From positions 1 to 27,795 of IMG/VR virus record IMGVR_UViG_2703718828_000002: DNA of 27,795 nucleotides; one strand, given 5' to 3'. Shown here in pieces: positions 1 through 27,795 of this stretch. The DNA comes from a virus. Taxonomy: Duplodnaviria; Heunggongvirae; Uroviricota; Caudoviricetes. How positions within the stretch are numbered: position 1 is the first letter of the stretch; every line of letters starts with the position of its first letter. A program made the position numbers and the translations under genes. The notes under the pieces were generated by a model. It saw only the letters and a program-made list of their open reading frames with translations, searched no databases and was not told where the DNA came from.

Positions 1-120
1 ATAAGTTGGAGTCATTACCGCATAAATCAACTAATTGAAATTACTAGAAATTATTTAGAAGCAGTAATCAATGGTTTTGATGACTATTTAAATAGAACAT
101 TGTACAGGACCGTCGCTTAG
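1..120 (+). CDS. C-terminal 39 codons of an ORF entering from upstream of the window; unknown product; convergent neighbour of the first cytosine methyltransferase
   Basis: Frame is open from base 1 to TAG at 118-120 (ending ...NYLEAVINGFDDYLNRTLYRTVA*); AT-rich like the adjacent MTase; a hairpin plus T-tract follows 16 nt later. Absent from the ORF track only because it is under 60 aa in-window. Confidence 0.3.
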   Translation: MSWSHYRINQLIEITRNYLEAVINGFDDYLNRTLYRTVA

Positions 121-135
121 AAAATATACGATCCC

Positions 136-161
136 ATGGCGTGCAATTGCACGCCATTTTT
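136..161 (+). terminator. Rho-independent terminator between convergent genes
   Basis: Perfect 22-nt palindrome ATGGCGTGCAATTGCACGCCAT (136-157) followed by T-run 157-161; lies between the stop of the partial ORF (120) and the stop of the minus-strand MTase (160-162). Confidence 0.5.
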
Positions 162-1191
162 AATTTGAAAGGTGCTTGAGAATACTTTGCCCAATGATCT
201 CGCCTAACCTTACCGGCACTGCATTTCCTATCATTCTTGCTGTTGATGCAATGTCCAAACTAGATTCTTTATCGAAAAATAAATAATCTTTCGGAAAACT
301 TTGCAGTATCGCAGCTTCTCTTAAGGAGATTGCCCTGTTTTGTTCTGGATGACCAAAGCGTCCATTACCAAAACCATAGCATTGTGTGGTTATTGTTGGA
401 CTTGGTTCATTCCATGACATCCTGCCATAAACACTTTTATAAAATTTTCCAGACTCTTTTAAGTGACAAGGTGCTCTCAAGTGTATCGGCCAATCATGCC
501 AATCGCCTCCGGGCTTTGAAGCTTTAATACGCTCCATGTTCAAAGGGCTAAGAGTAGAACATTTATGAAGTGGATCGCGCTTGTCACATTCTCCAGCATT
601 TAATGATGGAAGGCCAAATATTGCATCCTTAACAGTTACGTAATTTTTTTTGTTATGAGTCGGATCAATTATAGAGATAGGACCTAATTTGGATGCTAAT
701 AATACTAAACGTTTACGAGTTTGCGGCATTCCATAATCTGGGCAAAAAACGATCTTATAATAAACATTATATCCATGGCCTTCAAGGTTGTTTATGAAAT
801 CTTTAAATATGTCTTGTGTCATCAAGCCTGGTACATTCTCCATCGTGACGATAGAGGGTTGCGTTTCATCAATTAACCGCGAAAAAGAATATAATAATGC
901 CCATTTGTCATCTTTTTTCTTGTTTTTAGTTCTTCCATATGTTGAAAACGGCTGACAAGGAGCGCATCCAGCTAAAATCGTTACATCTGAATCTTTAAAA
1001 TGACTGAGGATCTGTTCACCCTTCAAAACGGTTATGTCTTGATTGATAAAAACTGCATTATTATTAAATTCAAACGCAAAACGGCAGGTTTCTTCAATAT
1101 CATAACCTGCTACAACATCAATGCCTGATTGCTTTAACCCATGGGTTAGCCCCCCGGCTCCGCAAAATAAATCTACTGCTTTGATTTTCAA
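160..1191 (-). CDS. DNA cytosine-5 methyltransferase (Dcm-like m5C MTase), copy 1
   Basis: 343-aa translation carries m5C-MTase motifs: DLFCGAGG (motif I), GCAPCQPFS (catalytic PCQ, motif IV), ENV (motif VI), QTRKR (motif VIII), GNAVPV (motif X). Start codon is TTG (rc of 1189-1191). AT-rich relative to the integrase next to it. Confidence 0.9.
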   Translation of the reverse strand: MKIKAVDLFCGAGGLTHGLKQSGIDVVAGYDIEETCRFAFEFNNNAVFINQDITVLKGEQILSHFKDSDVTILAGCAPCQPFSTYGRTKNKKKDDKWALLYSFSRLIDETQPSIVTMENVPGLMTQDIFKDFINNLEGHGYNVYYKIVFCPDYGMPQTRKRLVLLASKLGPISIIDPTHNKKNYVTVKDAIFGLPSLNAGECDKRDPLHKCSTLSPLNMERIKASKPGGDWHDWPIHLRAPCHLKESGKFYKSVYGRMSWNEPSPTITTQCYGFGNGRFGHPEQNRAISLREAAILQSFPKDYLFFDKESSLDIASTARMIGNAVPVRLGEIIGQSILKHLSN

Positions 1192-1223
1192 AATAATTCT
1201 CTATCTATTTTCAATTTATGCCT

Positions 1224-1260
1224 ATTATAACAGCTTTCATAAGCAACATCGATGATTAGT
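1224..1260 (-). promoter_or_regulatory. Candidate extended -10 promoter for MTase copy 1
   Basis: Minus strand reads TGtTATAAT (rc of 1224-1232), a perfect -10 hexamer with TG extension; the -35 region is poor. Sits in the 72-nt gap between the integrase stop and the MTase start. Confidence 0.3.
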
Positions 1261-1263
1261 TAT

Positions 1264-2457
1264 TCACATCATTTCTTTGACTTTGCTTCCCCACCATTTC
1301 ATAACTACAGCACGTTGTTCAAGGTATGTGCTACGGTTGTAGGCTCTACGTACCTCATTTTTGTCTGAATGAGCTAAGCAAGCCTCAATAACATCTGCGT
1401 TAAAGCAAGCTTCATTCATCGCGGTACTTGCTATAGAACGTAAACCATGCGCAACGAGCTTTCCATTATACCCAATACGTTTCAGTGCAGCATTCGCCGT
1501 TTGGCTATTCATCGGTTGCTTAGGATCATTCCTACTAGGGAATACGTGTACACGATGGGCACTGATAGGTTTCATTACTTCAAGTACCTCAAGTGCTTGA
1601 GGTGACAAAGGAACAATGTGCTCGCGTTTTGCCTTCATCCGCTCTGCTGGAATTGTCCATAGCTTAGCCTCAAAATCTATCTCTGACCATTGAGTACCGG
1701 AAGCTTCTGAGGGCCGTACGATAGTCAGTAGTTGCCATTCAATCAGGCAGCGAGTCGGGACTGATAGGTTTGACATAACCAATGATCGCATTAACTTTGG
1801 CAGTTCTTCTGGCCGCAATGTCGGCATGTTTTGCTTTTTAGGTTTCTCAAATGCCATACCAACACCTGATGCTGGGTTGCCATCAATCAAGCCGGTGTTA
1901 ACCGCATAAATCATTATCTCGTTGATGCGCTGCACCAGTCGACGTACAGTCTCAAGCGCCCCACGAGCTTTGATTGGCTCAAGAGCTTCAACCAGTGTAC
2001 GGGCTTTGATTTGCTGAACGGGGATCTCACCGATGGCAGGGAATACATCTTTCTCCAGTGAGCGCCAAATGTCTTTTGCGTAATCAGGAGTAACGCTTTT
2101 GCTTTTGAGCTGGAACCAGTTAGCGGCTACTGTTGAAAAAATACTGTCCAGTGCGATTTGCTGCTGTTCCTCTGCAACTTCAGCTTGAATTTGTGGGTCG
2201 ATTCCGTTGGCTAATAAAGCAAGGTAATTCGCTCTTAACCCTCGGGCATCAGCAAGCGAAAGGGCGGGGAAAGCACCTAGCCCCATCATTGTCCGTTGTT
2301 TTGTCGCCGGACGTTGATAACGAAAGCGCCAGAGCTTTTTTCCACTGGTTTTCACTATCAGGAAAAGGCCATTGCCATCATGCAGCGTTAGATCCTTCTC
2401 TAACGCTTTAGCGCGAAGAACTTCGGTATTGGTCAGGGGGCGTGTTGTCCGTGCCAC
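1264..2457 (-). CDS. int: P4/CP4-57-type tyrosine integrase (ssrA-targeting IntA-like)
   Basis: 397-aa translation beginning MARTTRPLTNTEVLRAK...LWRFRYQRP resembles P4-family integrases as recalled; GTG start (rc of 2455-2457) preceded by AAGGAG 8 nt upstream; the ssrA 3-prime core lies about 185 nt upstream on the same strand. Confidence 0.85.
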   Translation of the reverse strand: MARTTRPLTNTEVLRAKALEKDLTLHDGNGLFLIVKTSGKKLWRFRYQRPATKQRTMMGLGAFPALSLADARGLRANYLALLANGIDPQIQAEVAEEQQQIALDSIFSTVAANWFQLKSKSVTPDYAKDIWRSLEKDVFPAIGEIPVQQIKARTLVEALEPIKARGALETVRRLVQRINEIMIYAVNTGLIDGNPASGVGMAFEKPKKQNMPTLRPEELPKLMRSLVMSNLSVPTRCLIEWQLLTIVRPSEASGTQWSEIDFEAKLWTIPAERMKAKREHIVPLSPQALEVLEVMKPISAHRVHVFPSRNDPKQPMNSQTANAALKRIGYNGKLVAHGLRSIASTAMNEACFNADVIEACLAHSDKNEVRRAYNRSTYLEQRAVVMKWWGSKVKEMM

Positions 2458-2480
2458 TATGGCCGCTCCTTCATGAATTG

Positions 2481-2526
2481 GTATACGCTTTTAGGTATAC
2501 ATCCTACCGTATACCTAAACGTATAC
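2481..2526. repeat. Four phased GTATAC-containing repeats upstream of the P4-type integrase
   Basis: GTATAC at 2481-2486, 2495-2500, 2509-2514 and 2521-2526 (spacing 14, 14, 12 nt), each in a GG/CG-TATAC-C context, 24-70 nt upstream of the int start. Confidence 0.4.
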
Positions 2527-2574
2527 CAATAATCACCGGATTTAGCCAGATATTCTCGGACAAGGACAGACACA

Positions 2575-2591
2575 AAAAAGCCCGTAGGGCT
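2575..2591 (-). terminator. Rho-independent terminator downstream of the ssrA 3-prime fragment
   Basis: Minus strand reads GCCCTACGGGC followed by TTTTTT (rc of 2575-2591); about 50 nt downstream of the CCA end of the ssrA fragment. Confidence 0.45.
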
Positions 2592-2641
2592 TGTGCCGTG
2601 CGGGCTTTCTGTACTTCACCGGACGTATCCGGATCATCATT

Positions 2642-2686
2642 TGGTGGAGCTGGCGGGAGTTGAACCCGCGTCCGAAATTCCTACAT
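2642..2686 (-). other. ssrA: Attachment-site core: terminal 45 nt of the tmRNA (ssrA) gene, not an intact gene
   Basis: Plus strand TGGTGGAGCTGGCGGGAGTTGAACCCGCGTCCGAAATTCCTACAT is the reverse complement of the recalled enterobacterial tmRNA 3-prime end (...AUGUAGGAAUUUCGGACGCGGGUUCAACUCCCGCCAGCUCCACCA). The match stops at 2686 and the flanking sequence is unrelated AT-rich DNA. Confidence 0.8.
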
Positions 2687-2818
2687 ACCATTTTTACTAT
2701 AACAAAAACATGAACTTATGTTTAAAATCAGTATGTTAGTATTATTTTGTGTTTGTCTGTTTTACGCATTTTTAATGCTCTGCCGCCAAAATGCCGCCAC
2801 TGGTTTTGCTTGGGAGAC

Positions 2819-4339
2819 TTATTCAGGCTTTAATTTATTGATAATAGAATCTACCATTTTAATGCCTGCCTCATTGACTATGACTGAATTGACTACTCTA
2901 TCAAAATAGTCTTCTATATGGTGGGAAAATAGGAAAGCAGCACTTGATGGTTTTTTGTTCTTTTCAACTGCAGATTGCAAGACTTCATGAGGCGGAATTT
3001 TAAACCTTTTGCATGATGCAATGAGATATTCAAACTCTTCAAATGATAGACAAAAAATATTCTCTGTAGGGATATGATAGTTATGTTTAAACTTGTCATA
3101 TATCTTATTCATCTCATCTTTAGCATAAGTATTAGCTAGGATACTACCATTGCCTAAGAAAAGGTTTTTATATGTAATGCAAATGATATATGAGTTAGCC
3201 CTGAATGGAGCTATTATTCGCTCATTAGAGTATATTTCTCGATTAACTTCGTGAGATTGTTCGATTGCTTTTAATACCGATTTCTTTATTTTTCCTGCAA
3301 TATCCTCAGGGCGTAATGTTACCATGCCTTTTTGGTGTATCTCAACGCCTTTAGCATCAATGAAAATATTTGCCTCAGTATGTGGAATGAAATAATCAAC
3401 TACTTTATTATCTTTAGGTAGTCGTTCTTTAAGGTATTTTTCGTTATGAAAATCAATTTCGCTTTCTTTTAGTATTAATTCCAGTGCATTTTCAAATACA
3501 TTTCCAAAGCTATCCATGAACTTCTCGGCATCAGTTCTTCTTAAAAGATCATATATGAACGTCTGTATGCTTGTTGAAGTCAGTTGTGTGTGTATCTGAA
3601 AATACTCTGAACCTTTTTTTATTAATGGTTTTTCAAGGAAAGGTGATGATGAGTAGTATTCAAGCAAAGGTTTATCATAGGTTTTTGATTTGCAAAATGT
3701 AGATAGTTCATTGTAATTTATTGATATTGCATCAAGAAATTTCTCAATGGTATTTCTAGGAATGATGTCAAATAATATAGTAAATGTATCTACATTCATT
3801 TTTCTCACGGGATGCTCTTCTGTTATGTGAGTTATTAATATGTAAGATAGCTTAAGAAAGTCTTCTATAGATACATTCGTGATAGTAAAAAAACTTGTCT
3901 TTATTTTATGGTTTTTTTCAAGTTCTGAAAATAGAAAGACTTGTCTGCTAATTGTGTTTAGAGCGTCAATTTTCTGGTAGATTCCTTGTTGGTATAGATT
4001 ATTTCTAATGAAGAAATGCATGCCATTCTTCCTCTCAAGACCGATAGGAATAATGTTCAAGGTTTCATAAGTTTTTTGGAAGAGTTTTATTGCTTGATTT
4101 TTATCGAGGATTTTGAATTTTTTATTCTTGCCAGTTACTGACGCAGACCACTTTAGACATAAATTAACAATCCAAGGCATGTGTCGTAACATGTGGATAT
4201 TATCTTCAAATTTTTGTAAGTTATATTGCATACAGAATTCGATAAATAAATCAGGGGAATAACCTTGGATTTCTGAACGAATAGCATCCATTCTTAACTT
4301 TGCAACCGCATCAGATTGAATATCTAATTTTTGAATCAC
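2819..4339 (-). CDS. Hypothetical 506-aa protein; AT-rich cargo gene between the att core and the prophage integrase
   Basis: Long uninterrupted ORF with markedly lower GC than int; GTG start (rc of 4337-4339) with GGAG 9 nt upstream overlapping the int stop; no family recognised by eye. A weak D...DxK pattern (VVDYFIPHTEANIFIDAKG) is the only motif-like element noted. Confidence 0.65.
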   Translation of the reverse strand: MIQKLDIQSDAVAKLRMDAIRSEIQGYSPDLFIEFCMQYNLQKFEDNIHMLRHMPWIVNLCLKWSASVTGKNKKFKILDKNQAIKLFQKTYETLNIIPIGLERKNGMHFFIRNNLYQQGIYQKIDALNTISRQVFLFSELEKNHKIKTSFFTITNVSIEDFLKLSYILITHITEEHPVRKMNVDTFTILFDIIPRNTIEKFLDAISINYNELSTFCKSKTYDKPLLEYYSSSPFLEKPLIKKGSEYFQIHTQLTSTSIQTFIYDLLRRTDAEKFMDSFGNVFENALELILKESEIDFHNEKYLKERLPKDNKVVDYFIPHTEANIFIDAKGVEIHQKGMVTLRPEDIAGKIKKSVLKAIEQSHEVNREIYSNERIIAPFRANSYIICITYKNLFLGNGSILANTYAKDEMNKIYDKFKHNYHIPTENIFCLSFEEFEYLIASCKRFKIPPHEVLQSAVEKNKKPSSAAFLFSHHIEDYFDRVVNSVIVNEAGIKMVDSIINKLKPE

Positions 4340-4351
4340 AATAGGTCTCCA

Positions 4352-5365
4352 CTACAAATTATAAAGAGGATTTTTAGTCACCGCGTCTTCAAGGTGATCG
4401 GGCGAAAAGTGGGCGTAAATCATGGTCATTTTTATATCGGCATGACCCAAAATATCACGCAGTACCAGTATGTTTCCGCCGTTCATCATAAAGTGACTGG
4501 CGAATGTATGGCGAAGCACGTGGGTGCATTGGCCCTCCGGTAGGTCAATACCGGCCCGCTTTACTGCCCGCTCAAAGGCTTTTCTGCATGGCGTGAATAA
4601 CTTTCCTCTGTTTTTGGGGAGTTCATCATACAGATCCTGAGATATCGGCACAGTACGGTTTTTCTTGCCTTTTGTTTTTGTATAAGTAATTCGGTATTTC
4701 GATATTTGATGGCCCTGCAGATTTTCGGCTTCACTCCACCGTGCGCCAGTAGCCAGGCATATTTTTGCAATCATTAGTAAGCTAGGGCTTTGAGATTCAG
4801 CACATGCCGCCAACAGGCGCTTGATTTCGTCCGTGGAAAGAAAAGCCAGCTCACCTTCGGCAATTTTGAAGGTCGGAAGTCCTGCCAGCGGGTTTGGTGC
4901 TGACCAGTGTCCTAGTTTTTTTAATGTACCGAACACAGATGATAGATTGCGCTGTTCAAGGTTTACCGTGCGGGGCTTAACGGGCGACATCAGCGTGCCA
5001 TCTTCATTTCGCACTTCACCTTTTAGCCGTGCTTCGCGGTATTTCGTAAAGTCACCGGCAGTCAGCTCTGAAGCGATGGGATCGCCCAGACCATTACAGA
5101 TAATTCCAAGTTTCGCCATGAGTCGCTTGGGGTCTGCGAGTGTTTGACCATACAGGGAATACCACAGCTCAATTAATTCTGATAGGTGTCGCCGATCTTC
5201 CTTTTCTCCCAGCCAAGGTTTCTTGTTTACCTCGTCCATGGTGAAATTCTCAAACGCAATGGCTTCGCCTTTCGTCGCAAATTGTTTGCGTACGCGTTTG
5301 CCATCTCGCCCGTTTGGGTAGCATTCACATAACCACTTTCCGTTCGGCTGTTTTCTGATGGTCAT
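4352..5365 (-). CDS. int: P2/186-family tyrosine integrase
   Basis: 337-aa translation with C-terminal tyrosine-recombinase signature region (...HVLRHTFASHFMMNGGNILVLRDILGHADIKMTMIYAHF) consistent with R..HxxR..Y catalytic residues; ATG at rc 5363-5365 one nt after the repressor stop. Confidence 0.9.
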   Translation of the reverse strand: MTIRKQPNGKWLCECYPNGRDGKRVRKQFATKGEAIAFENFTMDEVNKKPWLGEKEDRRHLSELIELWYSLYGQTLADPKRLMAKLGIICNGLGDPIASELTAGDFTKYREARLKGEVRNEDGTLMSPVKPRTVNLEQRNLSSVFGTLKKLGHWSAPNPLAGLPTFKIAEGELAFLSTDEIKRLLAACAESQSPSLLMIAKICLATGARWSEAENLQGHQISKYRITYTKTKGKKNRTVPISQDLYDELPKNRGKLFTPCRKAFERAVKRAGIDLPEGQCTHVLRHTFASHFMMNGGNILVLRDILGHADIKMTMIYAHFSPDHLEDAVTKNPLYNL

Positions 5366-5366
5366 A

Positions 5367-5999
5367 TCAAAGGCTCTTAATGATTTTCAGTGCGCGGCCT
5401 ATTACCTCAATGTCATCCAGTTCGCACTCAAACGATGAATCATCCTGATGCACTACTAATCTGTTTCCCGGGAGTCGTGTCAATTTTACAATGCTTTTTA
5501 TCCCGTCGATGTCCACTAACCACGTACCATTTACTGGTGGTGTTTGGTTGCGATCTATTAAATAAGAATCACCAGAAGTAGTCACCAGCAGCAGGTTGCT
5601 TGAGTCTGAGGGGAGTATGCTGCTATCAATGATTGCTTTTCCAGCATCGATCAGCAAACCTCCGTTGAGAGTTGCCTTGTCAATTTCAGGAGATACAAGC
5701 TCCGAAAGAGGTTTAACTTTGCTAGAGTTCACGGAATTGATATTTTTTTTAGGGTCAATGTTTGAACCTGGATCGCCCTGTCCGGTAGTTAGCCACAGTA
5801 AAGAAACTCCTGTTTCCAAAGCGCACTGAATCACCCATTCTGCAGGAAAACTATCTCTTAAGTATCTGTTTGCCATAGTGCTTTTTGATGCGCCCAAGTG
5901 ATCGCAAAGTTGCTGTCTGGACTTGAAATCATAGGCTGCCATTAGCCTATGGATAGCCTCTCTTCCCCCTGTATTCTCGCCAGCTTTTACTTGTATCAT
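5367..5999 (-). CDS. cI: CI-type immunity repressor (phage 186 CI-like)
   Basis: 210-aa protein on the int strand, divergent from the apl/cII operon; motifs CALETG..LLWL.TGQG and LWLVDIDG...LTRLPG...FECELDDI match the 186 CI layout as recalled. Confidence 0.75.
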   Translation of the reverse strand: MIQVKAGENTGGREAIHRLMAAYDFKSRQQLCDHLGASKSTMANRYLRDSFPAEWVIQCALETGVSLLWLTTGQGDPGSNIDPKKNINSVNSSKVKPLSELVSPEIDKATLNGGLLIDAGKAIIDSSILPSDSSNLLLVTTSGDSYLIDRNQTPPVNGTWLVDIDGIKSIVKLTRLPGNRLVVHQDDSSFECELDDIEVIGRALKIIKSL

Positions 6000-6004
6000 T
6001 TTTT

Positions 6005-6065
6005 AATCCTGTTGACGTATCAAATATTGGATCGTAGTATCTTGGTGTATCAAATATTGAATCAA
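6005..6065 (+). promoter_or_regulatory. Immunity switch region: candidate rightward promoter with duplicated operator-like 13-mers
   Basis: TTGACG (6012-6017), 17-nt spacer, TAGTAT (6035-6040); the 13-mer GTATCAAATATTG occurs twice (6017-6029 and 6047-6059) overlapping the promoter; lies between divergent cI and apl. Confidence 0.4.
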
Positions 6066-6118
6066 ATAAAACAAGATAAAACGACGTAAACCAAACCTTA
6101 ATCGAGAGATACTGCACT

Positions 6119-6367
6119 ATGAGCAACGACATTTCAATTCGTGTACCAAAAGTGATGGCGACACCAGCTGAGTTCGCGGAATGGGAAGGCCGCTCTCGCG
6201 GTTCGGTATATCAAATGATTCATAATGGTAAACTCGCTAAATTCTTGGAAAGAAAAGAAAAACCGAAAGACAGAGTATGTATACGTTACCTTGAGTACAA
6301 AAAGGAACAAGTCAGGAAAAACATGGGCCAATCCAATTTCAACTTTAATGTCATCGTTGGTGACTAA
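6119..6367 (+). CDS. apl: Apl/Cox-like small DNA-binding regulator/excisionase
   Basis: 82-aa first gene of the rightward early operon, divergent from cI. Assignment is by position and size in the 186-type layout. Confidence 0.55.
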   Translation: MSNDISIRVPKVMATPAEFAEWEGRSRGSVYQMIHNGKLAKFLERKEKPKDRVCIRYLEYKKEQVRKNMGQSNFNFNVIVGD

Positions 6368-7950: not shown

Positions 7951-8804
7951 GCACCATCCTGAAATGGGCGGGAAATAAAACCGCCATTATGTCCGAACTG
8001 AAAAAACACCTTCCTGCTGGCCCGCGACTGGTTGAACCTTTCGCGGGTTCCTGTGCTGTGATGATGGAGACGGATTACCCCAGCTATCTGGTTGCGGATA
8101 TTAATCCTGATTTAATCAACCTCTATAAAAAGGTTGCCGCTGATTGTGAATCGTTTATATCTCGCGCCAGAGTTTTATTTGAGATCGCAAACAGGGAGGT
8201 GGCTTATTACAACATAAGGCAGGAGTTTAATTACTCCACTGAAATTACTGATTTCATGAAAGCGGTATATTTCCTGTATCTCAATCGTCACGGTTACCGT
8301 GGTTTATGTCGCTATAACAAGAGCGGGCATTTCAACATTCCCTACGGTAATTATAAAAATCCGTATTTCCCTGAAAAAGAAATTCGCGCATTTGCAGAAA
8401 AAGCCCAGCGGGCAACGTTTATCTGCGCCAGCTTTGATGAAACGCTGGCGATGTTGAAGGCGGGGGATGTGGTGTATTGCGATCCGCCGTATGACGGCAC
8501 GTTTTCCGGTTATCACACTGACGGCTTCACTGAAGATGACCAGTATCACCTGGCATCCGTTCTTGAACATCGGTCATCAGAAGGACATCCGGTCATTGTT
8601 TCTAACAGTGACACATCCCTGATCCGTTCGCTGTATCGCAATTTTACTCACCACTACATCAAGGCAAAACGCAACATCGGTGTGGCAGCTGGCGAGGGTA
8701 AATCAGCAACAGAAATCATTGCTGTTTCCGGGCCGCGCTGCTGGGTGGGATTTGATTATTCGCGTGGCATGGACAGTTCTGCCGTGTACGGAGTACGTGC
8801 ATGA
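7947..8804 (+). CDS. dam: DNA adenine methyltransferase (Dam-like, N6-adenine)
   Basis: N-terminal LKWAGNK AdoMet-binding motif and catalytic DPPY (VYCDPPYDG). ATG 7947 with GGAGG 6 nt upstream, overlapping the previous stop (ATGA); the track start at 7887 has no RBS. Confidence 0.9.
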
Positions 8805-11215
8805 GTCATGCCGATATGAACAACTGCTGCGGCTTTAACGAGGCTACCGCAGCATTCTCATGGAACAGCCCGAAAAAGGCCATTAACCCTTATCTGGACC
8901 CGGCGGAAGTTGCGCCGGTTTCTGCGCTTTCAAACCTGATCACTCTGTACGCTGCCGATAACGAGCAGGAACAACTGCGCCGTGAGGCACTGAGTGATCA
9001 GGTCTGGGAGCGTTATTTCTTTAATGAATCCCGTGATCCTGTCCAGCGCGAAATGGAGCAGGATAAGCTAATTAGCCGGGCAAAGCTGGCGCATGAGCAG
9101 CAGCGTTTTAATCCAGACATGGTCATTCTGGCGGATGTCAACGCCCAGCCTTCCCATATCAGCAAGCCGCTGATGCAACGTATTAAATACTTCAGCAACC
9201 TGGGCAGGCCAAAGGCTTATTCCCGCTATTTGCGTGAGACGATTAAGCCATGCTTGGAACGACTGGAGCATGTACGCGACAGCCAGCTATCTGCATCTTT
9301 TCGTTTTATGGCAAGCCATGAAGGGCTGGACGGTCTGCTGATCCTGCCTGAAATGAGTCAGGATCAGGTGAAACGCCTGTCCACCCTTGTCGCTGCGCAT
9401 ATGAGCATGTGTCTTGATGCCGCTTGTGGTGATTTGTACGCCTCCGATGATGTTAAGCCGGAAGAAATCCGCAAGACATGGGAAAAGGTGGCAGCAGAAA
9501 CCCTGCGACTGGATGTCATACCGCCTGCGTTTGAGCAACTCCGCCGGAAAAGAAACCGCCGCAAACCTGTGCCCTATGAACTCATTCCGGGTTCGCTGGC
9601 GCGTATGCTGTGCGCCGACTGGTGGTATCGGAAATTATGGAAGATGCGTTGCGAATGGCGGGAAGAGCAGTTGCGTGCTGTCTGTCTGGTCAGCAAAAAA
9701 GCATCTCCCTATGTCAGCTATGAAGCCGTGATGCATAAACGTGAGCAGCGCCGTAAGTCGCTGGAGTTTTTCCGTTCTCATGAACTGGTGAACGAAGACG
9801 GCGACACGCTGGACATGGAGGATGTGGTAAACGCCAGCAGCAGCAACCCTGCGCATCGCCGCAATGAGATGATGGCCTGTGTTAAAGGCCTGGAGCTTAT
9901 CGCGGAAATGCGCGGTGACTGCGCCGTTTTCTACACCATCACCTGTCCGTCACGTTTCCATTCCACGCTAAATAACGGCAGGCCCAACCCGACCTGGACA
10001 AATGCGACGGTAAGACAAAGCAGTGATTATCTGGTTGGCATGTTTGCTGCATTTCGTAAGGCGATGCACAAAGCCGGATTGCGCTGGTATGGCGTGCGGG
10101 TGGCTGAGCCGCATCATGACGGTACAGTTCACTGGCACCTGTTGTGTTTTATGCGCAAAAAAGATCGCCGCGCCATTACTGCTTTGTTGCGTAAGTTTGC
10201 CATTCGTGAAGACCGCGAGGAGCTGGGGAATAACACGGGACCACGCTTTAAGTCTGAGTTGATTAACCCGCGCAAAGGAACGCCGACAAGCTACATCGCG
10301 AAATATATCAGTAAGAACATTGACGGGCGTGGTCTGGCTGGCGAGATCAGCAAGGAAACGGGTAAATCCCTGCGTGATAACGCTGAATACGTGAATGCCT
10401 GGGCGTCTCTGCATCGTGTTCAGCAATTCCGCTTCTTTGGCATTCCGGGGCGTCAGGCTTACCGTGAACTGCGATTGCTGGCTGGTCAGGCGGCAAGGCA
10501 ACAGGGTGACAAAAAAGCAGGTGCGCCGGTACTGGATAACCCGCGCCTTGATGCCATCCTGGCTGCTGCTGATGCTGGTTGTTTTGCCACCTACATCATG
10601 AAGCAGGGCGGCGTACTGGTTCCCCGCAAATATCACCTCATCAGAACCGCTTATGAAATCAACGAAGAGCCAACCGCCTATGGCGATCACGGTATTCGTA
10701 TTTATGGCATCTGGTCACCCATTGCAGAGGGCAAGATCTGCACTCATGCAGTGAAGTGGAAAATGGTTCGTAAGGCCGTTGACGTTCAGGAGGCGGCAGC
10801 CGACCAGGGCGCTTGCGCCCCTTGGACTCGTGGCAATAACTGTCCCCTTGCTGAAAATTTGTACCAACAAGGGAAAGACAAATCAGCTGATGGGGATACC
10901 AGAACGGATATTACCCGTATGGATGACAAGGAGTTGCACGATTACCTGCACAGTATGAACAAAAAAGAACGCCGGGAACTGGCTGCAAGATTACGCCTGG
11001 TGAAACCGAAACGGCGTAGAGACTACAAACAGCGAATTACAGACCATCAACGACAGCAGCTCGTCTATGAACTGAAGTCCAGAGGATTTGATGGCAGCGA
11101 GAAAGAGGTCGATTTACTCCTTCGCGGCGGCAGCATTCCGTCAGGAGCAGGCCTGCGTGTCTTCTATCGGAACCAGCGTTTGCAGGAAGATGATAAGTGG
11201 CGGAACCTGTATTAA
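8801..11215 (+). CDS. A: Replication initiation protein A (rolling-circle nickase, P2 gpA family)
   Basis: 804 aa with HUH-type motif [10 protein letters not shown] and paired tyrosines YIAKYISK; ATGA overlap with the dam stop; size and position match P2/186 gene A. Confidence 0.9.
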
Positions 11216-12034: not shown

Positions 12035-13075
12035 TTGATTAAAGTTGTTGATCTTTTTTGCGGAGCAGGTGGCTTAACTCATGGTTTGCAACGAGCAGGG
12101 TTGAATGTGGTTGCAGGCTATGATATTGATGCTACATGTCGGTATGCTTATGAAAAAAATAACAATGCTTTATTTGTGCAAAAAAGCGTCACTGAACTTG
12201 ATGAAGGGGAAATAAGTAAGCATTTTAAGGATGCATCAATTAAAGTTTTAGCTGGATGCGCTCCATGCCAGCCATTTTCTAGTTATACAAATACTGATAA
12301 ATCAGTAAAAAAAATAAAAGACCATCGATGGTCTTTATTGTATAGCTTTGCTAAGCAAATTCAATTATGTGCTCCAGATATAGTCACAATGGAGAATGTT
12401 CCAAGAGTTATTAACCACAAAGTTTTTAAAGATTTTGTGAAGACTTTAAAGTCTGAAGGGTATTTCGTTTGGTATGATACTGTATTTTGTCCTGATTATG
12501 GAATGGCCCAAAGCCGATCTAGATTAGTGTTATTAGCGTCCAAGTTTGGCGAGATAAAACTAATCCCGCCAACACATGATAAAAATAACTATAACACTGT
12601 ACGTAGCGTTATTGGTGGATTGCCTCCTATTGATGCTGGATCGAGTGATGAGAAAGACAGACTTCATTATGCTGCATCTTTATCACCATTAAATATGGAG
12701 CGAATAAAACATTCTAAGCCAGGTGGAACATGGAAAGATTGGCCTGAGTACTTACGGGCGTCATGCCACACCAAAGAATCAGGATCTTCTTACACTGCAG
12801 TTTATGGAAGAATGAGCTGGGATAAACTTGGCTCTACAATTACAACACAATGTATAGGTTTTGGTAATGGTCGATTTGGTCATCCAGAACAAAATAGAGC
12901 TATTAGCCTAAGAGAGGCAGCTTTGCTTCAATCTTTTCCTCTAACTTATGAATTTTGGCCAGCTGAAGTAAAAGTTGAACTCAGGAATGTTGCACGACTG
13001 ATTGGTAATGCTGTGCCGGTGAGGCTCGGTGAAGTTGTTGGGCAAAGTATTATTGAACACCTTAAAAGAAAATAA
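12035..13075 (+). CDS. DNA cytosine-5 methyltransferase (Dcm-like m5C MTase), copy 2, paralogous to copy 1
   Basis: 346 aa with DLFCGAGG, GCAPCQPFS, ENV, QSRSR and GNAVPV motifs; collinear by eye with the 160..1191 protein along its whole length; TTG start with strong SD; AT-rich. Confidence 0.9.
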   Translation: MIKVVDLFCGAGGLTHGLQRAGLNVVAGYDIDATCRYAYEKNNNALFVQKSVTELDEGEISKHFKDASIKVLAGCAPCQPFSSYTNTDKSVKKIKDHRWSLLYSFAKQIQLCAPDIVTMENVPRVINHKVFKDFVKTLKSEGYFVWYDTVFCPDYGMAQSRSRLVLLASKFGEIKLIPPTHDKNNYNTVRSVIGGLPPIDAGSSDEKDRLHYAASLSPLNMERIKHSKPGGTWKDWPEYLRASCHTKESGSSYTAVYGRMSWDKLGSTITTQCIGFGNGRFGHPEQNRAISLREAALLQSFPLTYEFWPAEVKVELRNVARLIGNAVPVRLGEVVGQSIIEHLKRK

Positions 13076-13099
13076 AAAGGGCGAATCGCCCTTTTTTTT
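13074..13099. terminator. Bidirectional terminator shared by the convergent MTase and GHKL genes
   Basis: A-run, GGGCG-AAT-CGCCC hairpin, T8 run; overlaps both stop codons (13073-13075 and 13098-13100). Confidence 0.5.
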
Positions 13100-15056
13100 A
13101 GATACCATCAACAATTTTCATTATTCGTGCAGCATCATCTTTTTTGCTCTGATACTCAGAGTATGCTTGTTTGGATTGTATTATAAGATCGCTATATGTT
13201 AATACCTTTGCATTTATAGATTGTAGCTGTGAGCGAATATAATTATCTCCACTTCCGTCATAACCTTTGCCGACAAGAAAAACTACATCTATCGGTGGTA
13301 TTTTTCCGGCAGGGCAACTATTTGGGTTGTTTCTAAACCACTGCTCTGTGGCAACAACATATTTCCTTCCTTGACCTACTAATGCCAAAATATCAGGATA
13401 TACATTTGGTCTTTTCATTTCAATGATGACGTGTTTACCTGAAACGGTTTTGAAGGCTATATCAATTCTTGCACCACTTTCAGCGTCAGGGTTAACCTCT
13501 TTCAATTCCTTAGTCAGGGTTTGTTCCATAACTGTAGAACCAGTAACCCTCTCCCATGATGGGTCTAACAGCCATAAGTGGTCATAAAGATATTTTTGTA
13601 CAGCCTTCTCTAACTCATTGTCATCGGTGATTTTTTGAAATTTCTCAATAACTTTCAATCGCTGTGATGTAATCTCATAAAAAAGGCTTGCCTCAATATC
13701 ATTTACAGAAGCAAAAACCTCCCTAAAATGTTCTGAGTTTAAATCGCTAATTTTATCTAAAGCCTCAAGGTTATCTTTTATTCTTAATCTTTCAAAAGCA
13801 AGAACTGTATTTTTTAATACGGTTTTTTTTGCAATTTTCTGGTTTTCTTCATCTCCAGAAAATCTAAATGTGTTAATTTTGCCTAGTAATTTTTCGGCGC
13901 TGTTTCTTTCATGTTTTGACATGGAATCAAGCCAATCACTTACAGCAGGTGAAGTTTTTTTAACCTCGCTAAGACCTTTTGCTCTTCGCCATTCATCCCA
14001 TTCTTTATCTATTTTTTGTAATGTCCGTTCTAAGAAACCCTTAATCACAGGATAGCGTGGATCATTCTGCTGTAATTTCTGTCGGGATGAGGTTGCCATG
14101 TCAGGTTTTTCATTTTCATCTAAAAAATCTGCGACAAGTTCCCCTACTAAATAATTTGTAAAAACCTTTGCGCTTCCGAATTCAAGCAATATATCTTCTT
14201 CAAATACCCGCCCATTTGATATTACGGTTATCGTGTTGTTAGATATTTCAGGGTCTTTTTTAAGTTGAGATGGTTTCTCAACACTTCCTACATAACCAGT
14301 AATGAAATAATCTACGCCTTCAAAAGATAATTTGTTATCTAGAAGGCTTTTTTTAGAAAGATTTTTGCAAGATTTTACTCTTGCGGGATCTGAACTACCA
14401 AACTCCCATAAAAATTCAAGATCTGAAAGGAAGTCTCTATCTTCAGTAGTTATCTCAGTGTCATTGATTTTAACTATAAAATCATGACCAGGACCAATTA
14501 TGCTAAACCGTCTGGCAAGTCTTTTTCTTAGATAGGTCTGAGTTCTATCAATGGATTTTTTTAAATCCATAAGAACTATTGTCGTCCCTATACTAAAGTC
14601 TTTCGGAACATTAATAATATTTGCAACATATTGTTTACTGCTTTTTATACAGCGTTGCAATTCATCAACGTCAACTTCAAATCCCTGAGGCGTTTGGCCA
14701 ATTTTGTGAGAAAATACTTGGATTTTGTTAGCTAATGAAAACATTGCTAATTTACCAATGCCTTTTCTACCCATGACTTGTCGTTGTAATCCATCACTTT
14801 TATACCTTCCACTTTCTCTTCTGGCATATCCAACTTTTAGGAATTTATTAATGATGTCATCTTTTGACATTCCATGTCCATCATCTTTAATTATTACCTT
14901 TTCATTTTCAACATCTAGAGTGATGTCTACATTTTTAGCATCCGCATCCCAAGCATTTGAGATTATTTCAGTTAGAACAGCTGGTGTGTTAGAGTAAAGA
15001 CTCATACCTAAATGATTCAATACATTCAGGTCTATTTTAATTTCGAAATCGGACAT
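13098..15056 (-). CDS. GHKL-superfamily ATPase (MORC/MutL/Hsp90-like Bergerat fold) with C-terminal PD-(D/E)xK-like motif; candidate effector partner of MTase copy 2
   Basis: 652 aa. N-terminus carries N-box EIISNAWDADA, G1 box DDGHGM and G2 box GRKGIGKLAMFS; C-terminus carries RIDIAF...12 residues...IIEMKRP (D...ExK). ATG at rc 15054-15056 with AAGGA RBS; AT-rich. Confidence 0.8.
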   Translation of the reverse strand: MSDFEIKIDLNVLNHLGMSLYSNTPAVLTEIISNAWDADAKNVDITLDVENEKVIIKDDGHGMSKDDIINKFLKVGYARRESGRYKSDGLQRQVMGRKGIGKLAMFSLANKIQVFSHKIGQTPQGFEVDVDELQRCIKSSKQYVANIINVPKDFSIGTTIVLMDLKKSIDRTQTYLRKRLARRFSIIGPGHDFIVKINDTEITTEDRDFLSDLEFLWEFGSSDPARVKSCKNLSKKSLLDNKLSFEGVDYFITGYVGSVEKPSQLKKDPEISNNTITVISNGRVFEEDILLEFGSAKVFTNYLVGELVADFLDENEKPDMATSSRQKLQQNDPRYPVIKGFLERTLQKIDKEWDEWRRAKGLSEVKKTSPAVSDWLDSMSKHERNSAEKLLGKINTFRFSGDEENQKIAKKTVLKNTVLAFERLRIKDNLEALDKISDLNSEHFREVFASVNDIEASLFYEITSQRLKVIEKFQKITDDNELEKAVQKYLYDHLWLLDPSWERVTGSTVMEQTLTKELKEVNPDAESGARIDIAFKTVSGKHVIIEMKRPNVYPDILALVGQGRKYVVATEQWFRNNPNSCPAGKIPPIDVVFLVGKGYDGSGDNYIRSQLQSINAKVLTYSDLIIQSKQAYSEYQSKKDDAARIMKIVDGI

Positions 15057-26735: not shown

Positions 26736-27795
26736 GCACAAAATTTTATACCCTGCTGACGGATATTGGCGCGGCGAAACTTGCCAGCGCCGCCGCGCTC
26801 GGTGTGCCGCTAAAAATTACCCATATGGCGGTGGGCGATGGCGGTGGAGTATTGCCAACGCCGGACGCAAAGCAGACGGCACTGGTAAATGAGAAACGCC
26901 GGGCTGCGCTGAATATGCTTTATATCGACCCGCAGAACAGCAGCCAGATTATTGCCGAACAGGTGATCCCTGAAAACGAGGGCGGTTGGTGGATACGTGA
27001 AGTGGGCCTGTTTGATGAGTCCGGGGCATTGATTGCCGTGGGCAACTGCCCGGAAAGCTATAAGCCGCAACTGGCTGAAGGTAGCGGGCGCACTCAGACC
27101 GTGCGCATGGTGCTGATTACCAGCAGTACGGACAATATCACCCTGAAAATCGACCCTGCTGTAGTGCTGGCAACCCGCAAGTATGTGGATGACAAGGCAC
27201 TGGAGCTGAAGGTGTACGCGGATGATCAGATGGCAAAACATCTTGCCGCACCGGACCCGCATTCACAGTACGCGCCAAAAGCCAACCCGACATTTACCGG
27301 AACCCCCAAAGCGCCAACGCCAGCGGCGGGGAATAATACCACGCAGGTTGCGACCACTGCGTTTGTACAGGCGGCACTGACGGCCCTTATTAATGGTGCG
27401 CCAGCCACGCTGGACACGCTGAAAGAAATAGCCGCAGCCATTAACAATGATCCGAATTTCAGTACCACCATTAACAATGCGCTGGCACTGAAAGCGCCGT
27501 TGTCGAGTCCGGCACTCACCGGAACGCCAACAGCACCTACTGCGGCACAGTCGGTCAACAATACACAGATTGCCACTACAGCTTTTGTGAAATCAGCGAT
27601 TGCGGCAATGGTGGGTTCTGCACCTGCTGCACTGGATACACTGAACGAACTGGCGGCGGCGCTGGGGAATGACCCGAACTTTGCCACGACAATGTTGAAT
27701 GCGCTGTCAGGCAAACAACCGCTGGACAATACGCTGACTAATTTGAGTGGAAAGGATGTTGCTGGTCTTCTCGCATACCTTGGTTTGGGAGAAGC
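26732..27795 (+). CDS. H: Tail fibre protein (P2 gpH), N-terminal part only; continues past the window end
   Basis: ATG 26732 in ATGA overlap with the I stop; reading frame open to the window edge; the conserved N-terminal domain (MS.KF.T..T..GAAKLA.A.A.G....I..MAVGDGGG.LP.PDA.QT.L..E..R.ALN...) matches P2 H. Confidence 0.9.
   Translation, partial: MSTKFYTLLTDIGAAKLASAAALGVPLKITHMAVGDGGGVLPTPDAKQTALVNEKRRAALNMLYIDPQNSSQIIAEQVIPENEGGWWIREVGLFDESGALIAVGNCPESYKPQLAEGSGRTQTVRMVLITSSTDNITLKIDPAVVLATRKYVDDKALELKVYADDQMAKHLAAPDPHSQYAPKANPTFTGTPKAPTPAAGNNTTQVATTAFVQAALTALINGAPATLDTLKEIAAAINNDPNFSTTINNALALKAPLSSPALTGTPTAPTAAQSVNNTQIATTAFVKSAIAAMVGSAPAALDTLNELAAALGNDPNFATTMLNALSGKQPLDNTLTNLSGKDVAGLLAYLGLGE
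27330..27740 (+). repeat. Tandem duplicated ~60-codon module inside the tail fibre gene
   Basis: Protein repeats NTTQVATTAFV...LDTLKEIAAAINNDPNFSTTINNAL and NNTQIATTAFV...LDTLNELAAALGNDPNFATTMLNAL; the corresponding nucleotide segments (from about 27332 and 27557) are recognisably similar. Confidence 0.5.

Follow-up and report, generated by a model that had tools for sequence, protein, structure and literature searches.

A 45-nt copy of the 3' end of the tmRNA gene ssrA, at positions 2642-2686 of the window (the whole stretch of DNA analysed, 27,795 nt), very probably marks where the two members of a tandem array at the tmRNA gene meet. These 45 nt are predicted to be the attR core of a P2-like prophage and, simultaneously, the attL core of a P4-like satellite. 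The fragment sets limits that are exact to the base, since the prophage runs from 2687, the satellite runs to 2641 and 2642-2686 are common to both. The window holds the integrase (int) end of the satellite and the prophage as far as its tail-fibre genes, within which it leaves the window (Table 1).

Table 1. Features of the satellite, the junction and the prophage, in window coordinates
Feature	Position	Strand	Evidence or remarks
IS1, terminal 19 nt	1-19		Exact match to K-12 IS1A end (L009 197-215)
HEPN-like nuclease gene, 3' end, truncated by IS1	20-120	plus	MAE_28990/MAE_18760 family; 100% identical to L001 4001-4101
C5 DNA cytosine methyltransferase, satellite cargo	160-1191	minus	PF00145, E = 1e-61; TIGR00675
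P4-type tyrosine integrase	1264-2457	minus	Arm-DNA-bind_3, Phage_int_M and Phage_integrase; NF007246, 576 bits
Four GGTATAC/GTATACC heptamers	2480, 2494, 2509, 2521 (2480-2527)		Two in each orientation
Rho-independent terminator, ssrA-sense	2574-2608	minus	Hairpin and T-run
Satellite arm directly 3' of CCA	2609-2641	minus	Identical in satellite-only strains
ssrA 3' end, 45 nt	2642-2686	minus	T-arm, 3' acceptor strand and CCA
Int-proximal arm of P2-like attP	2687-2818		Start ACCATTTTTAC common to SEN8, MLG42 and 22 E. coli junctions
gapS1, GapS1-family anti-phage protein (506 aa)	2819-4339	minus	NF047931, 428 bits; annotated gapS1 in relatives
P2-family integrase	4352-5365	minus	Int_N and Phage_integrase; phrog_1, phrog_11531
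CI repressor, lysogeny switch	5367-5999	minus	Phage_CI_repr and Phage_CI_C
Cox/Apl-like excisionase, lysogeny switch	6119-6367	plus	phrog_575
Remaining P2-like prophage	6400-27795		CII, gpA, R-M hotspot, portal, terminase, scaffold, capsid, lysis and baseplate genes
gpA	8801-11215		
C5 methyltransferase, gpA-portal R-M hotspot	12035-13075	plus	
BbrUII/HgiDII-family restriction endonuclease, gpA-portal R-M hotspot	13098-15056		

The ssrA fragment

The 45-mer TGGTGGAGCTGGCGGGAGTTGAACCCGCGTCCGAAATTCCTACAT is an exact match at 2642-2686 and its sense strand is the minus strand, on which it reads ATGTAGGAATTTCGGACGCGGGTTCAACTCCCGCCAGCTCCACCA, the last 45 nt of E. coli ssrA. In E. coli strains WP4-S18-ESBL-07, TOK-001, MFDS1019527 and K-12, the annotated ssrA of 363 nt ends in the same 45 nt. 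The 45-mer occurs a single time in the window with up to three mismatches permitted, and it had no match in any of 100 dinucleotide-preserving shuffles. Shorter or diverged copies of the core, searched for across the window with a 25-mer and a 17-mer, were not found.

Over the whole window, ARAGORN detected neither tmRNA nor tRNA and Rfam gave no matches at the gathering score. In a permissive Rfam search, RF00023 aligned with the fragment at the 3' tRNA-like end only (30.5 bits against a gathering score of 47, E = 2e-10), which falls short of the full-length RF00023 match at or above the gathering score that defines a tmRNA gene. By these comparisons 2642-2686 is judged to be an ssrA fragment, not a tmRNA gene. 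A transcript of the fragment together with the terminator that follows it has an ordinary secondary structure (z = -1.3).

In an alignment to intact ssrA, identity stops at 2686, where the window reads on as ACCATTTTTAC and ssrA as CCTCGGTAC. GC content is 28-35% over 2701-4200 compared with about 49% over 1801-2700. An earlier note, made from the letters of this DNA, had claimed that the 45 nt on the minus strand are the 3' end of tmRNA, that the remainder of ssrA is absent and that the match ends abruptly at 2686 with AT-rich DNA after it. All three claims stand, given the exact match to four annotated E. coli genes, the lack of a tmRNA gene in the window by ARAGORN and by Rfam at the gathering score, and the alignment break at 2686/2687 next to DNA of 28-35% GC.

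A fragment of this kind is expected where islands or prophages integrate into tDNA, as defined for Islander (PMC4383910). Islander-type elements encode a tyrosine integrase of their own and end in a 3' fragment of the tDNA that points the same way as the intact gene. In TOK-001 the fragment has the same orientation as intact ssrA, and in the window an integrase gene lies on each side of 2642-2686.

The prophage edge

The same 45 nt are present in two circular phage records, those of Salmonella phage SEN8 (Felsduovirus) and Yersinia phage vB_YpM_MLG42. On one side of the 45 nt both phages read ...AAAAATGGT, the complement of window 2687-2695. On the other side they read AATAAA.CAAGGGGTTACGTG...CCCCTTTTT, a terminator that also follows intact ssrA in TOK-001, exactly. 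Because the attP of the free phages matches in this way, 2686 is the edge of the block of identity between phage and host and 2687 is the first base of the prophage. Both the core and the int-side arm of the window match the free-phage attP exactly, and the int/CI region has 81-84% nucleotide identity to SEN8 and MLG42.

Repeat detection revealed a direct repeat, TGCCGCCA, present twice in the int-side arm (2781-2788 and 2792-2799). In relatives the ogr-side arm has the same repeat, in the form GTGGCGGCAAAATGGCGACAG (L002, L005, L006 and L008), and there it recurs as TGGCGGCA...TGGCGACA. The TGCCGCCA pair at 2781-2799 may therefore be regarded as a pair of candidate arm-type sites.

Pfam and PHROG matches identified int, CI/Cox, gpA and the portal, terminase, scaffold and capsid genes in P2 order, as is characteristic of a P2-like prophage. 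PHROG matches in the lysogeny switch region (5367-6367) were to phrog_6912 and phrog_575 (excisionase). Prophages in E. coli genomes and deposited Peduoviridae records match the region at 96-97.5% identity. The AT-rich gapS1 (28-35% GC) is cargo lying between attP and int. The slot between att and int is about 118 nt long in SEN8 and MLG42, whereas here it is occupied by this 1.5-kb gene. The att-int interval has been described as a minor P2 defence hotspot (PMC13586616). In other tandem strains the same slot encodes a dCTP deaminase (E47) or hypothetical proteins (F95, D3 and HS4).

The satellite arm

Window positions 20-2686 are 100% identical to at least six complete E. coli genomes, in which the same DNA enters intact ssrA directly. 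In one of these, WP4-S18-ESBL-07, the element is a complete P4-like satellite of about 11 kb. Its order from ssrA is int, C5 methylase, HEPN-like nuclease, DUF262, delta, psu, sid, HTH, icd-like and alpha primase-helicase, and it is followed by ypjA. The genes psu, delta, sid and that for the alpha primase-helicase lie outside the window, which is cut by IS1 at 19/20, and are present in the 100%-identical WP4-S18-ESBL-07 element.

Identity to the satellite starts abruptly at window 20, inside the gene for the HEPN-like nuclease (annotated at 3373-4101 in the relative record L001). The satellite here is evidently interrupted by IS1 at 19/20, with disruption of the nuclease gene of its defence hotspot, and the start of the window is probably a contig break in IS1. 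Given this interruption, the satellite may be a truncated remnant rather than a mobile element. The methyltransferase gene next to the nuclease sits in the int-psu defence hotspot of the satellite and its product is annotated as a DNA cytosine methyltransferase in L001. The satellite integrase has the N-terminal arm-binding domain of a P4-type integrase and is transcribed away from the ssrA fragment.

A rho-independent terminator is located between CCA and the int promoter, upstream of int, and in satellite-only strains it stands immediately 3' of intact ssrA. It is kept across the junction variants, though both arms of its stem vary. Because it is on the ssrA-sense strand and directly follows ssrA in satellite-only strains, it is identified as a replacement ssrA terminator brought by the satellite and orphaned here behind the 45-nt fragment. 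Between the CCA end and the terminator lies a palindrome, CCGGACGTATCCGG (2619-2632), which is invariant in seven of eight variants while its flanks vary; it could be a tmRNA 3' processing signal or a protein-binding site.

Five GGTATAC/GTATACC heptamers were found in the 27.8-kb window, four of them clustered at 2480-2527, where they overlap the int promoter region. Across the eight junction variants the first three do not vary, and the fourth has a single substitution, in GDAR2. Another pair of heptamers, with 12-bp spacing, is present in the distal arm of three satellites, and the corresponding position of CP4-57, a cryptic prophage of E. coli K-12, has equally spaced copies of another motif, TAGGCCC. 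The clustering, the invariance, the distal pair and the counterpart in CP4-57 all favour a role as arm sites, making the heptamers candidate arm-type binding sites of the satellite integrase.

The earlier note had placed a P4-family integrase 'with its terminator and GTATAC repeats' on one side of the fragment and a P2-family prophage, with int at 4352-5365, on the other. The two integrases were confirmed, the former by Arm-DNA-bind_3, Phage_int_M and Phage_integrase matches and the latter by Int_N and Phage_integrase matches together with P2-type genes. The repeats are likewise present at 2480-2527, but the terminator is that of ssrA and does not serve the integrase.

Array states in related genomes

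Three of the four possible states of the site were seen in complete genomes: satellite alone, prophage alone and both in tandem. With window 2470-2799 as a junction probe, counted at ≥ 80% coverage, the tandem type of junction was found in 22 of 5,426 complete E. coli genomes. The exact junction had no match among these 5,426 genomes (best identity 93.6%), and a scan of species-representative genomes for the exact junction gave none.

The order in TOK-001 is smpB, intact ssrA, prophage (ogr to CI, int and gapS1), 45-nt copy and P4-type int. The P2-like prophage of this strain is 34 kb long and has an exact 45-nt copy at each end, intact ssrA adjoining its ogr end; the element downstream comprises no more than int, one ORF and an IS5-family element. 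In MFDS1019527 the prophage is alone; intact ssrA is again at the ogr end, and at the int end the chromosomal flank ATCATGATTG comes after a perfect core. In F95, D3 and HS4 a complete satellite adjoins a P2-like prophage with other cargo. Four further strains (E308, FJ_Ec_21, WEC and 873.10) have the prophage, the 45-nt copy and, of the satellite arm, the terminator region alone (its first 75-90 nt), beyond which the sequences diverge. These look like deletion scars of former tandem arrays.

The present window has two integrases and a shared internal fragment. It contains one copy of the core and ends about 9-10 kb before the expected ssrA. From the map of TOK-001, intact ssrA would lie about 10 kb to the right of window position 27795.

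At its distal end the satellite has a degenerate 18-22-nt remnant of the 'psaA' type, CGCCAGC-CCACCA or CGCCAGC-----CA. The distal repeat of WP4-S18-ESBL-07 is TTCAGACTCCGCCAGCCCACCA, identical to K-12 'psaA', and that of F95 and D3 is TTCAGACTCCGCCAGCCA; in all three strains the chromosomal flank ATCATGATTG follows. These deletion variants have been tabulated for P4-integrase elements at ssrA, and the P2-integrase elements SopE-phi and Fels-2 keep CGCCAGCTCCACCA (PMC10107115, Table 1). The distal remnant starts with TTCAGACTCCGCCAGC in four elements (L003 9981-10002; L007 22965-22986; L010; L011), and the sequence just inside it varies by element. The prophage-only strain has a perfect core at the chromosomal position of the satellite distal remnant. 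The remnant may be borne by the element or may be a decayed host copy.

These comparisons bear on the larger proposal of the earlier note, that both elements use the ssrA 3' end and are arranged in tandem, with which the free-phage attP, the satellite-only genomes and TOK-001 agree. Its suggestion that empty sites be checked was taken up by genome comparison, and satellite-only, prophage-only and tandem states all exist. The placement of intact ssrA beyond the right end of the prophage holds for TOK-001, at the ogr end, and for this window is extrapolated from relatives. A second 45-nt copy delimiting each element was found for the prophage (two exact copies in TOK-001) but not for the satellite, which has the degenerate 18-22-nt remnant in its place.

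Formation of the array

In the sense of ssrA, the array would run smpB, intact ssrA, P2-like prophage (ogr to int and gapS1), 45-nt copy, satellite, degenerate remnant and chromosome (ypjA side). The P2-like attP, of Fels-2/SopE-phi type, carries the last 45 nt of ssrA and a terminator of its own, and the P2-type tyrosine integrase would recombine inside the 45-bp block of identity. Recombination there would regenerate a complete ssrA at the ogr end and displace the 45-nt copy to the int end. The P4-type integrase presumably uses the extreme 3' end of ssrA, with the satellite bringing the gene end, a terminator and its arm sites (the GTATACC repeats). As the displaced 45-nt copy still holds the satellite target, and the satellite arm is next to it, it would constitute a fully formed satellite attL. 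The satellite attP junction is predicted to consist of the alpha-side arm, the core and then AATGATGATCCGG. Since the cores are identical, satellite-first and prophage-first integration would give the same product, which leaves the order undecidable. The core, both arms and both types of integrase were identified, and all three occupied states are present in relatives.

The satellite half of this scheme might be dead. If so, the 45 nt would be the attR of the prophage only, the DNA to their left would be a decayed and immobile ssrA island, and the array would be a single mobile element beside a remnant, with no functional helper-satellite pair. In favour of such decay, IS1 ends at window 19 inside the satellite nuclease gene, in TOK-001 the downstream element consists of just int, one ORF and an IS5-family element, and E308, FJ_Ec_21, WEC and 873.10 retain only the satellite arm or terminator beside the prophage. 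However, intact satellites match window 20-2686 at 100% identity, neither the int nor the methylase ORF is shortened, sid, psu, delta and alpha could survive an IS1 insertion in a cargo gene, and complete satellites occur in this tandem position. It is unlikely, though well short of negligible, that a dead remnant is all that adjoins the prophage.

The junction itself could have arisen in other ways. That just one copy is visible, with no tmRNA gene in the window, would also fit a pseudogene left when a copy of ssrA was deleted or rearranged by illegitimate recombination, rather than an att site made by an integrase. However, the breakpoint at 2686/2687 is, to the base, the edge of the attP identity block in free phages, the same breakpoint occurs at the junction in 22 independent genomes, and the 3' side passes precisely at CCA into the satellite arm, just as it does in satellite-only strains. 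The pseudogene explanation is already effectively refuted and its probability is close to nil. It is also extremely improbable that an assembly chimera joined prophage and island contigs via their shared 45-nt repeat. Despite the fact that the window resembles a draft contig, with a start in IS1 and an end in tail-fibre genes, and that a 45-nt repeat can mislead short-read assemblers, the same join is found in 22 closed genomes with several variants of satellite and prophage. In addition, with intact ssrA at the other end, this join is the only biologically consistent path through the assembly graph. An internal junction of two ssrA-integrated elements is the explanation retained below.

Comparison with known elements

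The tandem arrangement is real, ordinary and already known; it involves no new mechanism and no departure from earlier descriptions. Integration of P2-type phages and of P4-integrase islands at ssrA, element-borne 3' ends and terminators, and tandem arrays at tDNA are established. Going by the part of the literature consulted, tandem arrays at ssrA have been described since 2003. In Salmonella Typhimurium LT2, ssrA is occupied by Fels-2 (P2 integrase) and Stm27X (P4 integrase), according to Williams 2003 as tabulated in PMC10107115, Table 1. As here, the P2-family prophage of the LT2 array has a perfectly duplicated ssrA 3' end, and it shares the tmRNA gene with an island that encodes a P4-type integrase and ends distally in a deletion variant of the repeat. 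The host differs (the relatives found here are all E. coli), as do the cargo genes, and the downstream element here is, in identical relatives, a bona fide P4-like satellite.

The integration site of SopE-phi and Fels-2 is ssrA (PMC3448106). These two phages, together with SEN8 and MLG42, have in common with the window an identical 45-nt ssrA core, the first bases of the int-side arm and the phage-borne ssrA terminator. They also have TGGCGGCA-type repeats on the ogr-side arm, as do the relatives found here. In contrast to SEN8 and MLG42, the prophage of the window adds gapS1 (between attP and int) and an R-M module of BbrUII/HgiDII type (in the gpA-portal hotspot).

CP4-57 of K-12 (intA, psaA) provides a parallel to the satellite. 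It has a P4-type integrase immediately downstream of ssrA, supplies the ssrA terminator and has paired repeats with 12-bp spacing before int. At its distal end it has the remnant ...TTCAGACTCCGCCAGCCCACCA|ATCATGATTG, the same sequence as the satellite attR in WP4-S18-ESBL-07. However, IntA is 60% identical to the satellite integrase, the repeat is TAGGCCC instead of GTATACC, and CP4-57 is a 22-kb element in which sid, psu, delta and alpha are not annotated.

P4 itself integrates in a tRNA-Leu gene. The gene order of P4 and P4-like satellites (int, defence hotspot, delta/psu/sid and alpha primase; Moura de Sousa & Rocha 2021; Rousset et al. 2022) is that of the identical relatives of the satellite, and the hotspot here is in the position described for P4-like satellites. 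The difference is that the window shows the int end only, cut by IS1.

Satellites embedded in a helper are known among PICIs and, in the part of PMC10111431 consulted, satellite and helper prophage are contiguous in the chromosome, as here. Those PICIs are described there as integrating inside a late gene of the helper, whereas in the present array contiguity comes from the shared attB only and no helper gene is interrupted. P4-like elements adjoining large prophages have been noted previously in the literature.

Possible consequences of the arrangement

Excision of CP4-57 has been reported to write a deletion into ssrA, switching off trans-translation (PMC10107115). With a prophage in between, excision of the satellite would recombine the orphan 45-nt copy, so that the deletion would land there and not in ssrA. 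It is possible, though somewhat doubtful, that the P2-like prophage in this array insulates the working tmRNA gene from the satellite. If it does, the satellite could cycle in and out without the tmRNA-inactivating 'rescue switch', and a lesion would reach ssrA only upon later excision of the prophage with a crossover 5' of position 357. In the same geometry, read-through from int and gapS1 of the prophage would end at the terminator supplied by the satellite.

Phages of the P2-like helper type and P4-like satellites can compete for, and co-occupy, one attB. Co-occupation leaves two defence-gene hotspots only a few kilobases apart.

Fragments such as that at 2642-2686 should not be annotated as a tmRNA gene. 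In E. coli PSS-08-2 (NZ_AP027679.1; L015 1673-1849), the corresponding prophage/satellite junction bears a RefSeq annotation of 177 nt, 'ssrA transfer-messenger RNA', which overlaps a cargo gene of the prophage. The PGAP call is read here as a mis-called fragment, not a gene.

Methylases and a match to IsrM

The methyltransferases of the satellite and the prophage share 62% identity from end to end, the variable region included, and that of the prophage is paired with the BbrUII/HgiDII-family restriction endonuclease. According to a 2026 survey, P2 and P4 almost never have closely related defence genes in common. A role of the satellite methylase in shielding the satellite from the restriction endonuclease of the helper was considered; it is weakened by HS4, whose satellite lacks a methylase and lies beside the same prophage R-M system. 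GTCGAC sites occur about as often as expected (2 observed, 2.1 expected). The pairing of satellite and prophage methylases may be coincidental.

The Salmonella sRNA IsrM (RF02763) gave a weak Rfam match at 2574-2651 on the minus strand (34.6 bits, E = 7e-8). IsrM is 329 nt long with a threshold of 376 bits, and the match was rejected, as the aligned parts comprise the terminator and 8 nt at the 5' end, with 273 model positions missing. In LT2, IsrM lies between STM2762 and STM2763. The match suggests that the 3' end of IsrM may be homologous to the ssrA terminator brought by P4-integrase islands.
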